Below, in pieces: positions 2,737-34,266 of a DNA stretch of 40,240 nucleotides. The stretch spans positions 1 through 40,240 of the forward strand of contig CAUZVG010000001.1 in assembly GCA_963583215.1 (NCBI GenBank), read 5' to 3'. Below the pieces are notes generated by a model that worked only from the letters and a program-made list of their open reading frames with translations, did not search any database and was not told the DNA's origin. This stretch comes from Campylobacterales bacterium. Its GTDB lineage: Bacteria > Campylobacterota > Campylobacteria > Campylobacterales > Sulfurovaceae. Position numbers and translations under genes: made by a program. Positions within the stretch are counted from its first letter, which is position 1. Every line of letters starts with the position of its first letter.

Positions 2737-3843
2737 ATGTTGTATGATAAACAAGACAGTGTCATCAACCCTCCTGCTATTGATTTTCAAGATAAAGCTA
2801 AAAAAGAAAAATTTGACCTCTGGATGATTAAGTCAAATTTACTACAGATACGACTTGTTTCTGCACTCACTGGCTTACTATATATGATTTCTGCACTCAT
2901 AAACAGCCTGGTCGTATCAGGTGATATATTAGCCATAATGATAACCATACACCTCTATGTCATGCCTCCCTTTCTCTTTTTGATCTCTCTTATGACATTT
3001 AAGAAAGATCTCTACAGACTCTTCATCTTCTTACTGATGTTATCACCTGTAGTAGCAACGATAGGAAACTTGCTCATCACTTCAAAACTGGAAGACCCCG
3101 CGCTTTATATGACAGAGCTCTATCTGATTATCTTCTGGATATTTACGGTATCTGGACTACGTTTATGGCAGGCTACACTCTCTGCTATGACTACTGTTGT
3201 CGTTATTTTTTCTGTCACCTACTTTTTCTTTTCTCTTTCATTAGAATCTTTTGTCATGCACTGCTTCTGGATGCTTGCAGCATTCTCTTTTGGATTTTTA
3301 GCTGCATATCTTTTAGAGAAATCCTACAAAGAAGTATTTTCTACCCATGAGCAACTCACACAATTGGCCATGACCGATACACTGACAGGGTTATATAACC
3401 GTGCGAAACTGGATGAATTACTGCAAGATGAATTAAATCGTTCAAAGCAATTTCATCATACATTCGGATTGGCGATTATGGATTTAGACAACTTTAAAAA
3501 GATTAATGATACCTATGGACATCAAGTTGGAGATACGATCTTAAAAGAGATCGGAAAGATTATCACTGAAACACTACATTCAACAGATAAAGTAATTCGT
3601 TGGGGTGGAGAAGAGTTCTTACTTATTTACCTAGTAAAAAACCAGAAAGAAGTATTGAAACGTATTGAAGAACTGCGTCTACATATAGAGGAACATCTTT
3701 TTCCCATCTCAAGTACAATTACAGCAAGTTTTGGACTGACACTCTACAGTAAAGATGATACGATTGATTCTATTATACAAAGAGCCGATAATGCTCTTTA
3801 TATTGCGAAAAATAATGGCAGGAACTGTACAGAGTTCAACTAA
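2737..3843 (+). CDS. Membrane-bound diguanylate cyclase (GGEEF)
   Basis: N-terminal multi-TM region; D.LTGLYNR, DLDNFKKINDTYGH..GD, RWGGEEF, RADNALY.AK..GRN. AAGGAG upstream. Confidence 0.93.
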   Translation: MLYDKQDSVINPPAIDFQDKAKKEKFDLWMIKSNLLQIRLVSALTGLLYMISALINSLVVSGDILAIMITIHLYVMPPFLFLISLMTFKKDLYRLFIFLLMLSPVVATIGNLLITSKLEDPALYMTELYLIIFWIFTVSGLRLWQATLSAMTTVVVIFSVTYFFFSLSLESFVMHCFWMLAAFSFGFLAAYLLEKSYKEVFSTHEQLTQLAMTDTLTGLYNRAKLDELLQDELNRSKQFHHTFGLAIMDLDNFKKINDTYGHQVGDTILKEIGKIITETLHSTDKVIRWGGEEFLLIYLVKNQKEVLKRIEELRLHIEEHLFPISSTITASFGLTLYSKDDTIDSIIQRADNALYIAKNNGRNCTEFN

Positions 3844-7348: not shown

Positions 7349-8815
7349 CTATAAAAAGCGTAACATCTCTCCTTCTATATCCTCTTTTTGAACAACAGCT
7401 GTGTGTATCACAGGTTTAGCGAAAAGGCCTTTAATCATAGCAGGTACACTTACATTAGTGTTTTCACTTACCCATTTAAGTGCGTGGGTGTCATCTTTGA
7501 CTTCATGACCTAAAGCTTTGGCCACAGAAGGCGAAAACTTTGTCCATTCAGCCGTTGAATAAACCACTGTTTTTAACTTCTTCCCTCTTAAGGTCTCATA
7601 CGCCTTCATACACGTTGCAGTGTGAGGGTCCATAATATAACCTTTTTTAGCATAAGCACCCACCACGGCTTCACACTCTGCATCATCAGAGAAAGAAGCA
7701 GCAAAGTCTTCACGCAGGGAAGCAAGTTCTGCTTCTGTTAATCGAAACTTACCTTCTGTTGCCAAAGCATCCATAAGTTCTTTGGTACGTGTTGCGCCAA
7801 ATTTGTCAAACATGATACGCTCAATATTGGAAGATTTTAAGATGTCCATTGCTGGAGATTCTGTGTGTACCAATTCTCTTGATGTTAAATCATACACACC
7901 TGTCTTGATCCAGTCTGTTAAAATGTTGTTTACATTTGATGAAATAAGGATTTTTTCTATAGGAAGCCCTGCTTTTTTAGCATAATACGCACCCAAAGCA
8001 TTACCAAAATTTCCTGATGGCACGACAAGGTAAATCTTCTCTCCTATGCTAATCTCGTTTTTTCTTACGAGTTCTAGGTAGGAGTGAATATGGTAAATGA
8101 TTTGGAAAATAATACGTCCAAAGTTTACAGAGTTGGCCGCTGAGAGTTTAATGTTACGTGTGGCAAGTTCTGCTTTAAAGTCATCAGAAACCAGTAGCTC
8201 TTTTATCGCATGTTGTGTGTCATCAAAGTTACCTTCAACACCTATAACTTTAAGGTTTGAAGCATCTTCTGTGACCATTTGCAGTCTTTGTACATCTGAC
8301 GTTTTACCATCAGGGTAGAGACAGGCAACTTGTACACCCTCTTGGTTTTTAAACGTTTCTAAAGTAGCAGGTCCTGTATCTCCAGAAGTGGCTGCCATAA
8401 TGAGGTAATGTTCCCCACGTTTTTGAGCCAATTTGGAAAGCACGTAACCAAAAGGTTGTAAAGCCATATCTTTAAAGGCACGTGTTGGACCATGGTAAAG
8501 TTCTGCTACAAAACAATCTTCTTCCACTTGAGTCAGTGGTACAGGATTACTAGGGTCATCAAAAGCATCGTATCTGCTTAATGCTGCTTCGAGTACCTCT
8601 TTTTCAATATCAATGCCGAAGTTTGTTAAAAAGTCTAAGGCCAATGTTTTGTAGTGTGAAGAGAGATGACCTTCTAAAAAGGCTGTATCTAAGTTTGGTA
8701 ATTTTTCAGGCACATAAAGCCCACCAAAACTGGCACTTGGACTCAATATCGCTTCTGAAAATGGCACAGATAATGGTTTTTGTCCGTCATTTCCCCGTGT
8801 CTCTATAAATTGCAT
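7349..8815 (-). CDS. thrC: Threonine synthase
   Basis: ELYHGPTRAFKDMAL (PLP lysine), ATSGDTG, ANSVNFGR, VPSGNFGN. Confidence 0.96.
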   Translation of the reverse strand: MQFIETRGNDGQKPLSVPFSEAILSPSASFGGLYVPEKLPNLDTAFLEGHLSSHYKTLALDFLTNFGIDIEKEVLEAALSRYDAFDDPSNPVPLTQVEEDCFVAELYHGPTRAFKDMALQPFGYVLSKLAQKRGEHYLIMAATSGDTGPATLETFKNQEGVQVACLYPDGKTSDVQRLQMVTEDASNLKVIGVEGNFDDTQHAIKELLVSDDFKAELATRNIKLSAANSVNFGRIIFQIIYHIHSYLELVRKNEISIGEKIYLVVPSGNFGNALGAYYAKKAGLPIEKILISSNVNNILTDWIKTGVYDLTSRELVHTESPAMDILKSSNIERIMFDKFGATRTKELMDALATEGKFRLTEAELASLREDFAASFSDDAECEAVVGAYAKKGYIMDPHTATCMKAYETLRGKKLKTVVYSTAEWTKFSPSVAKALGHEVKDDTHALKWVSENTNVSVPAMIKGLFAKPVIHTAVVQKEDIEGEMLRFL

Positions 8816-9076
8816 CTAAATTCCTATGTTTAATATAAATATAATTATAGCCAAAGAAGCTAAGACTATTATGTTTCAAAGTGAGGGTAAAAGGGGAAAA
8901 TAAAAATTGTATAAATAAGCATCTAATGTCTACCTGTACTACATCCATAAGAGCAGAAGAGTGTAATTAGGGAAAAGAATGTCAACTATTACAAACGAAT
9001 AAGAACAGACAGAACATTAAATACTTAATTTAATAGGAGTTGGAAAACTATCTAAAAGATAGAAGTTAAACTCTGC

Positions 9077-9153
9077 TATTGGTAGTCTGGCTATCTACTA
9101 GAGATCCATGGACTTTCCGTACCCACCTCGCGATGAACTTGGCTTTTTCAATA
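9077..9153 (-). ncRNA. c-di-GMP-I (GEMM-I) riboswitch aptamer
   Basis: Minus strand reads UAUUG AAAAA G CC AA GUUCAUC GCGA GGUGGGU AC GG AAAGUC CAUGG AUCU cuagu AGAU AGCCA GACU AC CAAUA. P1 = UAUUG/CAAUA; P2 has a GNRA (GCGA) loop; P3 has the receptor region; equivalents of Vc2 G20, A47 and C92 are present. Confidence 0.88.
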
Positions 9154-9201
9154 CGTTTAACCGTATGAAAATATCCTACACCACTTAACTTAAATCTTTA
9201 C

Positions 9202-10566
9202 TTATTTTTCATAAATATGTTTATCTTTATAAAAGTAGTATCTATCTCTCCCTTTTTGTTTGGCACAATACATGGCCATATCTGCATGTTTAAGTAAAGT
9301 ATTTTTATCTAGACCATCATGAGGATATCTAGCAATACCAATACTTACTGTTGACTGTAAGATGTATGTATTAATCTGCATTGGTTTACGTACAGCTCTC
9401 ATAATTTCAGGAACAAGAATTTCTATATTTTCTATTTTTTCTTCTTCCTCAATGATAGCTACAAATTCATCTCCACCTATACGTGCAAGAAAATTTTCCT
9501 CTCCAATAACCTTTGAAATACGTTTAGAAACAGTTATTAGTAAACTGTCCCCTATATCATGTCCATAATTATCATTGATTGCTTTAAAACGATCTAAATC
9601 AATAAACAGAACAAGAAAGACTGGCTTATCTACTGAAGTCTTTCCTGAAGCTATGAGTGCGCTAGCATAACGTTCAAACTCTGTTCTGTTTGGAAGCTTG
9701 GTTAAAATGTCATGATAGGCCAAATAATACACATCTCGTCTATGTCTAAGTACATTAAAGTACGTGACAATCAGGACCACTAAGATGATGAACGTAAAAA
9801 GAAAGAAAAAAGTACCAAGAGAACTTTCTTGCTTTTTAGTCTTGAGATACTCTTTATCTATGAGTGTATTTAATTCTTCTATCGTTTGGTCAAGGTTTAG
9901 GGTTTCATTTTTTCTAAGTACTTGATGTAATTGTTGCACAGAACCTAAAAATGACTCCGTTTGTAAATGAAAATAATAGATATCACTGTCCAGATCTATA
10001 TGCAGTTTTAAACTTCTTAAATCTGCTTTAAAAGAGTGAATATCAAGCTTACTGTCTAAAAATACCTTTCCAACTTTAAACAATATCTCTCTGAGTAAAT
10101 TTTCCAATTGTATGTTTTCATAAGCATTGTTTTCTATGCGCTTTTGTAGCTCATGGAGGGCATACACTGAATGTGTAACATTTCGATTGAGTAAGATAAA
10201 TTGTTCAATGAGTTTTGTTTTTTCATGGTATTTTCTTTCTATGAGTCGCAGTTTATTCCTTACCACTTCTGTAAAATCATCTGTAAGTTCATTGCTATAG
10301 AGTAAGTCTAGCTCTTCTTCAAACTTTGTTGAGAGTTGTTTTACCTTTTCTTGTTTAAGGTAGGCAAAAGAGCGTAGAAGGGTATTGTCATAATCTTGAT
10401 TATGACTGTGGAGTTTTAGCACCGCATTTTTATAGTCATAATAGCTTTTTATTTTAGTCTCTAAATTTTGGTAATAGACAAAAAGCAAAAGAAGTAAGAC
10501 AACGAAAAAAAGCAAAAGTACTATGACCGCATCTACTCTGCTTCTTTTTTTACTATGCTTAGGCAT
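9202..10566 (-). CDS. Diguanylate cyclase with 2 TM and a periplasmic helical sensor (DAHL-like)
   Basis: TM - long helical periplasmic domain - TM; HDILTKLPNR, DLDRFKAINDNYGHDIGD, RIGGDEF, ADMAMY.AK..GR; no EAL domain. The DAHL assignment is inferred. Confidence 0.9.
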   Translation of the reverse strand: MPKHSKKRSRVDAVIVLLLFFVVLLLLLFVYYQNLETKIKSYYDYKNAVLKLHSHNQDYDNTLLRSFAYLKQEKVKQLSTKFEEELDLLYSNELTDDFTEVVRNKLRLIERKYHEKTKLIEQFILLNRNVTHSVYALHELQKRIENNAYENIQLENLLREILFKVGKVFLDSKLDIHSFKADLRSLKLHIDLDSDIYYFHLQTESFLGSVQQLHQVLRKNETLNLDQTIEELNTLIDKEYLKTKKQESSLGTFFFLFTFIILVVLIVTYFNVLRHRRDVYYLAYHDILTKLPNRTEFERYASALIASGKTSVDKPVFLVLFIDLDRFKAINDNYGHDIGDSLLITVSKRISKVIGEENFLARIGGDEFVAIIEEEEKIENIEILVPEIMRAVRKPMQINTYILQSTVSIGIARYPHDGLDKNTLLKHADMAMYCAKQKGRDRYYFYKDKHIYEK

Positions 10567-10660
10567 GACTGCCCCTTGGTGTGCATCTATGTACTTTTTG
10601 TGTCGGGAACAAAGTCCTTACACAAATGTACAAGCTTTTCATGACATTAAACCTTTTTCT

Positions 10661-11512
10661 TTACAGTTCTATACATGTCCCTACCCCAGAACTTGTTAAA
10701 ATCTCTAAGAGTAAAGAGTGCTCTACCCTACCATCAATGATGTGGGCTTTTTTTACCCCACCACGCAGTGCTTCTATACAGGCATCTACTTTAGGTACCA
10801 TGCCCCCGTGAATGGTGCCGTCACGCTTGAGTGCTTCTGTTTTTTCTATGCTAAGGTTGGTAATGAGTTTCATCTCTTTGTCTAAAACACCTGGTGTGTC
10901 TGTTAAAAACAGTACTTTTCTTGCTTGCATGGCCACGGCTATTTTAGAGGCTGCCAAGTCCGCATTGATGTTAAAACCAGGATGTCCCATGGTTGAAGAG
11001 CCGGCAATAGGTGCAATTACAGGTACCGCACCATCTTCAATAATGTTATTGACAATCTCAGGATTGACTGTTTCAATTAGACCAGTGTAACCAAAGTTTT
11101 TAAAGTCTTTAGGCTTTCCTTTTAAGAAACCCCCATCTTTTCCAGAAATACCAATGGCTTTAGAACCATGGTTGTCTAGTAAAGAGACAATCTCTTTATT
11201 GATTTGTCCTGAGAGTACCATCTCTGCAATACGCATCACTTCTTTTGTGGTCACTCGCTGTCCATCTACAAACTTCGTCTCAACGCCTAGTTGTGTGAGT
11301 AAATCAGTAATGCTTTTACCTCCACCATGTACAACTATGGGTTTCATTCCTACAAGGTGTAAAAGTACAATGTCTTGTGCAAATTGCTCTTTGAGTGTAT
11401 CTGAGGTTTGTGCTGCCCCACCATACTTAATGACTATCTTTTCATTGGAAAAACGTTTAATGTATGGTAATGCATCAAGCAGTGTCTTTACGACTTCTAT
11501 GTTATCTTTCAC
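10661..11512 (-). CDS. argB: Acetylglutamate kinase
   Basis: VIKYGGAA, VVHGGG, FNINAD.AA, GGMVPKV, HIIDGRVEHSLLLE. Confidence 0.97.
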   Translation of the reverse strand: MKDNIEVVKTLLDALPYIKRFSNEKIVIKYGGAAQTSDTLKEQFAQDIVLLHLVGMKPIVVHGGGKSITDLLTQLGVETKFVDGQRVTTKEVMRIAEMVLSGQINKEIVSLLDNHGSKAIGISGKDGGFLKGKPKDFKNFGYTGLIETVNPEIVNNIIEDGAVPVIAPIAGSSTMGHPGFNINADLAASKIAVAMQARKVLFLTDTPGVLDKEMKLITNLSIEKTEALKRDGTIHGGMVPKVDACIEALRGGVKKAHIIDGRVEHSLLLEILTSSGVGTCIEL

Positions 11513-33750: not shown

Positions 33751-33909
33751 AACGTTTCCTTTTTTGTTTGTAATAGTTACAGTTAAAAGTCTAACATACT
33801 AAATCTTAAATAAACATAAATTATAATAATACATTATGTATAGTTTAATAATTAATTTATTTAAACGTCAATCATAGATTATTTAAGATTCTGTAGAATG
33901 AAAGAATTA

Positions 33910-34259
33910 AGGTGCAACGATAAGCCGGGTTTTGTCGTGGGTAGTTATTTATCTAGGCCTGTTGTTGCCAACAGGCTCAAGCGAAGTATGTGTGCTGAGT
34001 AAACAGCTTGTGAGACTTATACCATATACTTCTTGCTGCGGACAGGGTTTACCTGGCTACCTATGTTACCATAAGTACCGGTGGGCTCTTACCCCACCCT
34101 TTCACATTGACCATATATCAAAGATATATGGACTACTTTCTCTCTGTTGCACTTGCCCTCAGATTACTCTGGCCATCCGTTAGATGGAGTCCTGTCTCAC
34201 GTGCAGCCCGGACTTTCCTCTCGTGACAAAGATGTCACCAGCAACTACCTGTTGCACCT
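33910..34259 (-). ncRNA. rnpB: RNase P RNA (type A)
   Basis: Minus strand has GAGGAAAGTCCGGGCT near the 5' end, AGTGCAACAG, and ACAAAACCCGGCTTAT near the 3' end; termini pair (AGGTGCAAC/GTTGCACCT). Confidence 0.97.
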
Positions 34260-34266
34260 AAACAGA

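Follow-up and report, generated by a model that had tools for sequence, protein, structure and literature searches.

What does a cyclic di-GMP (c-di-GMP) riboswitch control when no gene of its own follows it? The question is raised by a window of 40,240 nucleotides (nt), the whole stretch of DNA analysed, from a member of the Sulfurovaceae (contig CAUZVG010000001.1, positions 1 to 40,240), in which a c-di-GMP-I aptamer occupies positions 9077–9153 of the minus strand. The original prediction, made from the letters of this window, placed an intact aptamer behind a diguanylate cyclase (DGC) gene and offered feedback on the cyclase mRNA, a standalone RNA, or read-through into the threonine synthase gene thrC as possible explanations. 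Comparison with related genomes shows that the aptamer belongs to a real, conserved and apparently undescribed RNA unit, whose architecture, independence from flanking genes, covarying stem, invariant loop and complementarity to a target are all features read from genome sequences. The chances are, in our estimate, somewhat better than even that the aptamer gates a trans-acting small RNA (sRNA) of about 250 nt, transcribed from its own promoter, whose loop prevents a conserved hypothetical gene, and perhaps other mRNAs, from being translated.

The identity of the aptamer is the firmest part of the picture. A cmscan search places it at 9078–9153 and assigns it to RF01051 with 44.6 bits, the gathering score being 35 and E 1.1e-5, bearing out the claim of an intact aptamer, and it begins 48 nt past the stop of a 454-residue (aa) GGDEF open reading frame (ORF) on the same strand, with no terminator between the two, just as had been proposed (a consensus scan of positions 8300–11000 returned no terminator). 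The ligand-contact bases G20 (9143), A47 and C92 (9082), whose numbering and roles we take to be those of the Vc2 aptamer structure, are intact, and the GNRA tetraloop of P2 is present as GCGA. The variant that recognises c-AMP-GMP (GEMM-Ib) carries A at position 20, where this aptamer has G (9143), and on the model of the c-di-GMP-I-GGC variant (RF03167) it scores 47.8 bits, below the cut-off of 59. Orthologous copies, found in 16 of 20 thrC loci, score 41.5–53.8 bits on RF01051, and no second Rfam family besides the aptamer was detected within 8800–9250. The source genome holds six c-di-GMP-I riboswitches, the other five of which lie roughly 55–100 nt ahead of an ORF, where that ORF is assembled. 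The family is present in 34 of 36 genomes of the genus examined, with at most 28 copies each, many of them standing as tandem pairs about 150 nt apart (e.g., G029, G017:C2, G016:C12), whereas among 24 genomes from other families just 3 have any.

Around this aptamer, aligned copies share a fixed order of elements: a –10 box, a 5′ hairpin (P0), the aptamer, a terminator-like hairpin and a long effector hairpin. The predicted –10 box of the window, TAGGAT (9173–9178, minus strand), is the –10-like site noted originally, and proves to be a weakened form that aligns with TATAAT in relatives (42 copies). TATAAT is found in most copies, although a script scored it in only 23 of 52, missing 19 by its spacing rule, and it fits gnTAnaAT, given as the –10 consensus for Campylobacter jejuni and Helicobacter pylori in the accessible part of PMC3847290. 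P0 (9151–9166, minus strand), with a predicted RNA start near 9167–9166, overlaps the 5′ strand of aptamer helix P1; the hairpin folds in all 41 copies, with energies of –3.5 to –6.4 kcal/mol. Downstream, a region at 9032–9080 (minus strand) combines a terminator-like inner hairpin (9062–9048), a pyrimidine tract and an outer helix. The inner hairpin with its U-tract, CUAUCU-UUU-AGAUAG-UUUU at 9062–9044 (minus strand), is as originally described, and across the genus it is kept in shape and variable in sequence, with z < –1.5 in 40 of 52 copies relative to base shuffles. The outer helix pairs AAUAG (9080–9076, the P1 3′ strand plus one base) with CUAUU (9036–9032), and thereby competes with P1 for AAUAG, giving this region, to judge by its predicted pairings, the layout of an expression platform. 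An antiterminator pairing of AGAUAG in the aptamer with the hairpin was considered and rejected, the hairpin sequence not being conserved. In none of 42 aligned copies is the aptamer followed by a conserved sense ORF, so that a small sense protein was likewise rejected. The same comparison rules out a deletion relic: had the locus been one, relatives would carry a regular ORF separating the aptamer from thrC, whereas the unit has no conserved ORF of its own.

The roughly 260 nt without a credible ORF that had been noted in front of thrC are thus ORF-free in all 42 copies, but they are not empty. They hold a conserved, covarying hairpin of 112 nt (8916–9027, minus strand), predicted to comprise a stem of about 30 bp and a large C/U-rich loop, with a folding energy of –28.8 kcal/mol and a z-score of –4.5 (none of 200 shuffles was as stable, and the opposite strand has z –0.9). 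In 29 main-group copies, 97.3% of the stem cells are paired and 11 of 27 pairs show two-sided change, values that none of 500 shuffles reached and that compare with 42–46% pairing in slid controls, with the caveat that the structure was derived from the alignment also used for testing, which favours it. The restriction to these copies follows from a RNAalifold run on all 41 hairpins, which returned no pair, as two subfamilies misalign; the second subfamily has a different stem sequence and the same fold (z –6.4 to –7.6). The riboswitch strand gives the better fold in 40 of 41 hairpins, and the loop has a predicted unpaired probability of 0.53–0.81. No family in an Rfam scan matches this hairpin. 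A TTGACA inside the loop was considered as a promoter element and was not scored as one, as it is not 16–18 nt from any –10-like hexamer.

A sequence-only search model, built on the part downstream of the aptamer and applied at E <= 2e-5 to 116 genomes of the genus, recovered the unit in 53 Sulfurovum genomes, always within the interval between argB and thrC, and the aptamer is present in 52 of these 53 copies; with the same model, the unit was not found in 148 genomes from other genera in the order. The sequence in front of thrC was read in 90 of 108 genomes with a thrC match, most of the remainder being filled in afterwards. The gene immediately upstream of the unit is argB in 23 copies, a beta-propeller-type gene (a label that is the analyst's reading of the sequence) in 12, a GGDEF-EAL gene in 8, a GGDEF-only gene in 2, and other or unresolved in 8. 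A GGDEF gene is therefore the direct neighbour in only 10 of 53 copies, and the cyclase-riboswitch pair implied by the original prediction is not the usual arrangement. In seven genomes a GGDEF-EAL gene directly precedes thrC where the unit is missing. On the other side, thrC follows on the same strand in 49 of 53 copies, and in the remaining four (G102, G073, G091, G086) another gene with its own –10 box comes between the unit and thrC. Because the neighbours vary in this way, cyclase feedback and read-through into thrC fail as general explanations. Gene gain and loss concentrate in the argB–thrC interval, and in one genome (L071, G122) a short 3′-end relic of the beta-propeller-type gene remains upstream of thrC.

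The hairpin itself appears separable from the aptamer. In the G090 copy (L279, G090:C33:41248-41338, minus strand) the promoter, P0 and the effector hairpin are present, whereas aptamer and terminator are missing, making this likely a constitutive form of the sRNA. In G124 (L304, G124:C3:338789-338860, plus strand) a second loop-bearing hairpin is found elsewhere, with no aptamer-like match in the preceding 300 nt, and it is possibly a sibling sRNA. These two hairpins without an aptamer argue that the long hairpin is a selected RNA module of its own.

The loop carries the clue to function. Its seed (8969–8987, minus strand) is the exact complement of the Shine-Dalgarno (SD) sequence, 6-nt spacer, AUG and following UC of a predicted target, a 202-aa hypothetical gene divergent from murA (G000:C41:10340-10948; L156:5341-5949). 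The seed core, ACAUUCUUU, does not vary among the 41 copies compared, so that the loop reads anti-AUG, anti-spacer and anti-SD. Among 1571 called gene starts of the source genome this target ranks first, with –28.4 kcal/mol and a predicted duplex of 17 bp. More importantly, the 15-mer complement of the seed is almost confined, within the genus, to the unit and the start of the target gene, a non-start position coincides with one of the gene-start 15-mers at a rate of 1.3e-5, and of 1218 ATG starts only 36 show AGGG at the seed-matching place. As far as such comparisons of sequence can tell, the register of the loop match is stronger evidence than its energy.

Further support comes from the way site and seed vary together across the genus, where target gene starts were read in 90 of 100 gene-bearing genomes, one cut start being dropped. 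The exact 13-mer target site is present in 18 of 31 genomes with the main-group seed, which has four U residues (4-U), versus none of 58 others. At matched third-codon (synonymous) divergence, spacer identity is 0.61–0.79 in main-group pairs against 0.35–0.47 in unit-less pairs; in the closest divergence bin the values are 0.95 and 0.86, respectively, for pairs that are not independent. Perfect sites lie on at least three separate branches of a tree of 78 rows and 390 columns, in which 19 of 75 branches are open. Four genomes nested within the unit-bearing clade have lost the unit, and their sites are weaker (–25, –20, –14 and –14 vs –29 kcal/mol). Finally, in G130 a U-to-C change in the seed is matched by a G in the target, a single natural compensatory event.

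The target may not stand alone. Other exact 13-mer matches to an SD-spacer-AUG site number 34 in 36 main-group genomes versus 20 in the other 80 by a hand count, an excess that may be partly kinship, since some sites are orthologous. Of 20 matches retrieved, 13 prove to be real gene starts, most of them encoding signal-peptide-like N-termini, and the products at such sites, together with candidate sites in genomes whose seed has five U residues (5-U), include outer-membrane barrels, MlaC and an L,D-transpeptidase. That the seed is more conserved than any single target site suggests, on this comparative ground, that the RNA has more targets. A repeated intergenic sequence bearing the seed complement before a 24-aa ORF occurs at G000:C4:10555-10567 and C7:23293-23305, with a similar copy at C2:1487, and the seed was not found in the viral contigs searched.

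The predicted target is itself a conserved protein, present in 100 of 116 genomes of the genus and built on a nearly invariant core of about 130 aa. It has no Pfam match above cut-off and the query has no NCBIfam match, its atlas neighbours are hypothetical proteins of Campylobacterota, with MobI only as a lead under 0.9, and a full-length structural model is poor (pLDDT 48.6). A model of the 132-aa core is confident (91.2) and has no match in the PDB (Foldseek E >= 0.3, best Z 4.7). In seven genomes (L167, L170, L172, L190, L197, L203, L205) a c-di-GMP-I aptamer lies in the leader of the target gene itself, replacing a short GC hairpin, and three of these score as the GGC variant RF03167. None of these seven genomes has the unit, and none of 44 unit-bearing genomes with enough leader has the cis aptamer (Fisher p 0.005, a value overstated by kinship). 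Since cis aptamers occur only in unit-less genomes, the target gene is linked to c-di-GMP along a second path precisely where the RNA is absent. That sRNA and cis riboswitch are two mutually exclusive c-di-GMP wirings of one target, with the aptamer module gained and lost, and that mRNAs of exported proteins may be silenced as well, is a broader proposal to which we give slightly less than an even chance.

How the unit might work can be sketched from its layout. Without ligand, P0 would sequester the 5′ strand of P1 and leave AAUAG free to lengthen the terminator-like hairpin into the pyrimidine tract, so that the RNA would end, or stay unprocessed, before the effector. With c-di-GMP bound, P1 would capture AAUAG and the effector hairpin would be made, its loop then pairing over the SD and AUG of the target and blocking translation. 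The long stem would be excised by RNase III, as for CJnc190 of C. jejuni, and we infer an action without Hfq. The unit would accordingly be an ON switch for the sRNA, with the target repressed at high c-di-GMP, a sign that we favour somewhat over the opposite one, possible for instance through loading of Rho on an exposed pyrimidine tract. For this unit transcription, ligand binding, sign and repression are thus all predicted from sequence. In the source strain, where the –10 box is weakened and a terminator behind the cyclase gene is missing, part of the RNA may come from transcripts that read through from the cyclase gene, as a local twist rather than the conserved function.

Several observations weigh against an sRNA directed at the hypothetical gene. 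The best of 25 shuffled seeds reaches –28.1 kcal/mol, compared with the observed –28.4, and as the shuffled seeds range from –20.5 to –28.1, pairing energy taken by itself is modest support. Of 16 targets in the 5-U subgroup, a single one is at or below –20 kcal/mol when scored with the 4-U reference seed, pairing with the 5-U seed has a median of –16 kcal/mol, and no shared alternative target emerged in the five 5-U genomes searched. Sites are weak in 4 of 31 main-group genomes as well, and 9 of 35 unit-less genomes reach –20 kcal/mol, some of these being incomplete genomes that may hold an unassembled unit. The source genome has a second perfect 15-mer at a short ORF resembling a gene fragment. 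The genomes compared are kin rather than independent cases, and their tree is built on 390 columns. In several copies the inner hairpin is already stable by itself (–11 to –13 kcal/mol), which makes the sign of the switch unsure. Nor do RNA data decide the matter. Assembled contigs from RNA or possibly RNA (seven runs, plus one of unrecorded kind) were compared with the G083 copy, and contigs of two studies start at the predicted RNA start, one of them covering exactly the unit (1315–1573) in G083. Reading contig ends as transcript ends was nevertheless dropped: overlapping strain-variant contigs run on both sides at similar summed depth, the ends at the unit are probably assembly branch points that are not counted as evidence, and the contigs yield neither usable transcript ends nor, from their depth, a ranking of expression.

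A rival reading is that the riboswitch does gate a hairpin RNA whose loop is a decoy for a protein binding this pyrimidine sequence, or that of a multi-target sRNA with a different ancestral target, the match to the hypothetical gene then being secondary or clade-limited. Such a role, which we consider unlikely though deserving of attention, would fit a seed whose core (41 of 41) is better conserved than any target site, the poor 5-U pairing, and the surplus of exact matches elsewhere (34 in 36 main-group genomes vs 20 in the other 80), 13 of the 20 fetched being real gene starts that include outer-membrane barrels and MlaC. A protein decoy, however, needs no core that is exactly anti-AUG, anti-spacer and anti-SD in register, and both the matched-divergence comparison and the substitution by a cis riboswitch favour the hypothetical gene as target. 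The position of thrC, on the same strand after the unit in 49 of 53 copies and with no strong terminator past the effector hairpin, would instead agree with a long 5′ leader gating read-through into thrC and the LysM gene. Yet thrC has its own –10 box regardless of the unit, another gene follows the unit in G102, G073, G091 and G086, the seed does not complement the start of thrC, and the other five riboswitches of the genome sit roughly 55–100 nt before an ORF where one is assembled; we therefore hold this to be improbable, and the corresponding option of the original prediction has become weak.

Of the other options then offered, a standalone RNA has fared best, its –10-like site being aligned with TATAAT in relatives, although not in the form of a mere sponge, the effector hairpin having been missed. 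An RNA that stores or buffers c-di-GMP in the manner of the Bdellovibrio merRNA (a precedent described in the accessible part of PMC3627812), with its hairpin as a stability element, is suggested by the predicted promoter and the lack of an ORF. A stability hairpin, though, requires no invariant unpaired loop, G090 retains the hairpin without the aptamer, and the platform resembles a switch, leaving this reading decidedly improbable. Very improbable, in our view, is that the loop represents the SD and ATG of a very short peptide gene on the antisense strand, with the riboswitch RNA as an antisense regulator similar to type I toxin-antitoxin systems: the opposite strand of the loop does read as a good SD plus ATG, but the antisense ORFs span 6–42 aa and are unconserved beyond the first codons, G023 has ATA for ATG (with wobble pairing still allowed for an sRNA), and the stem folds on the riboswitch strand. 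Hardly credible, lastly, is an aptamer that forms the 3′ end of the cyclase mRNA and provides feedback in place of the I-site. The 48-nt gap, the absence of a terminator within it and the weakened –10 box of the source strain would suit it, and a 3′-end c-di-GMP aptamer can control RNA stability in Vibrio, according to what is accessible of 10.1101/617340. Against it stand the GGDEF neighbour in only 10 of 53 copies, the seven unit-less genomes with GGDEF-EAL before thrC, and an I-site that is absent in 27 of 29 cyclase orthologs irrespective of the unit and in 4 of 6 GG[DE]EF motifs of the source genome, so that this option found no support.

The flanking genes can accordingly be described on their own terms. 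On the minus strand the order is argB (10661–11512), the GGDEF gene (9202–10566), 386 nt of intergenic DNA, and thrC (7349–8815). The argB product is an argB-like amino-acid kinase (Pfam AA_kinase), and argB is the gene most often found just upstream of the unit across the genus; the thrC product, threonine synthase, matches Pfam Thr_synth_N and PALP. Preceding thrC is GGCTATAAT at 8852–8844 (minus strand), whose TATAAT (8844–8849) confirms the –10 element originally proposed and occurs in genomes without the unit too. The 454-aa GGDEF protein, a neighbour lying outside the RNA unit, has its Pfam GGDEF domain at residues 283–442 and lacks the EAL domain that most of its orthologs (about 712 or 960 aa, with an EAL motif) possess. 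It is likely a bifunctional GGDEF-EAL enzyme turned into a pure cyclase; the EAL domain is also missing in the G070 ortholog. Its motif, IGEENFLARIGGDEF, is without an RxxD I-site, as originally noted, with GEEN occupying the I-site place five residues before GGDEF. In view of its absence from nearly all orthologs, with or without the unit, the missing I-site is an inherited trait unrelated to the RNA. Elsewhere in the window are a second GGDEF gene at 2737–3843 (plus strand), which has the one plus-strand GGDEF motif of the contig and is without RxxD, and a class A RNase P RNA at 33905–34260 (minus strand).

Should the preferred reading of an aptamer-gated sRNA hold, it would newly connect c-di-GMP signalling with control by sRNAs, in a phylum where the model species have no Hfq, with one aptamer, fused to an sRNA gene, controlling distant mRNAs in trans and extending the c-di-GMP regulon by a route that needs no protein effector. 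It would also supply a testable account of orphan riboswitches that have no downstream ORF, a natural comparison of cis and trans control of the same gene, and a starting point for understanding a conserved Campylobacterota protein that has no known family or fold match. The literature searched, which mostly did not cover subscription journals and included no supplements, contained no description of this RNA unit, nor of a base-pairing sRNA controlled by a c-di-GMP aptamer in front of it. Non-coding RNAs gated by a riboswitch are rare, and in the papers found they serve to bind proteins (EutX/Rli55) or to store ligand (merRNA), or else consist of the riboswitch itself (SreA). In SreA and SreB the terminated riboswitch itself regulates a gene leader. 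These SAM riboswitch RNAs acting on prfA resemble the unit as riboswitch-containing RNAs acting in trans (PMC13501541, accessible part), and differ in that the unit has a separate hairpin as its effector and no gene following.

Other known systems each share one side of the unit; the likenesses given here are those described in the accessible parts of the papers cited. The merRNA of Bdellovibrio bacteriovorus is a standalone c-di-GMP riboswitch RNA with no conserved downstream ORF, proposed as a ligand store, for which that part of the source describes no base-pairing effector or target (PMC3627812). In Vibrio cholerae, the c-di-GMP-I aptamer Vc2 sets the amount of small RNAs; it is 3′-terminal, stabilises the RNA upstream of it and also leads tfoY, in contrast to the present aptamer, which lies 5′ of the effector (10.1101/617340). 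From the same phylum, CJnc190 of C. jejuni and RepG of H. pylori use a C/U-rich loop on a long stem to pair with a G-rich ribosome-binding site and start codon, have precursors with extended stems and, in C. jejuni, operate without Hfq (PMC8687705). The present loop, with its predicted unpaired probability of 0.53–0.81 and 17-bp predicted duplex, matches that description, a likeness drawn from description rather than from direct sequence comparison, and no riboswitch is mentioned for those RNAs in the text accessible (PMC8687705). Relative to an ordinary c-di-GMP-I (GEMM) riboswitch of RF01051, the aptamer is the same by score and key positions, and the output is a non-coding hairpin instead of an ORF. 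The closest architectural parallel is EutX/Rli55, an sRNA gated by a B12 riboswitch in Enterococcus faecalis and Listeria monocytogenes. It is non-coding and has its own promoter; riboswitch, terminator and trans-acting 3′ effector succeed one another, and the ligand decides whether the effector is produced (PMC5821096). Sequence comparison finds the same succession here, ORF-free and with a separate effector. EutX, however, combines a B12 aptamer with an ANTAR-binding dual hairpin that binds EutV, and is shortened by its ligand (PMC5821096), whereas the Sulfurovum unit joins a c-di-GMP-I aptamer to a single long hairpin and would be switched on. By its predicted architecture, then, the unit works like EutX and yet is not a member of the EutX/Rli55 type.

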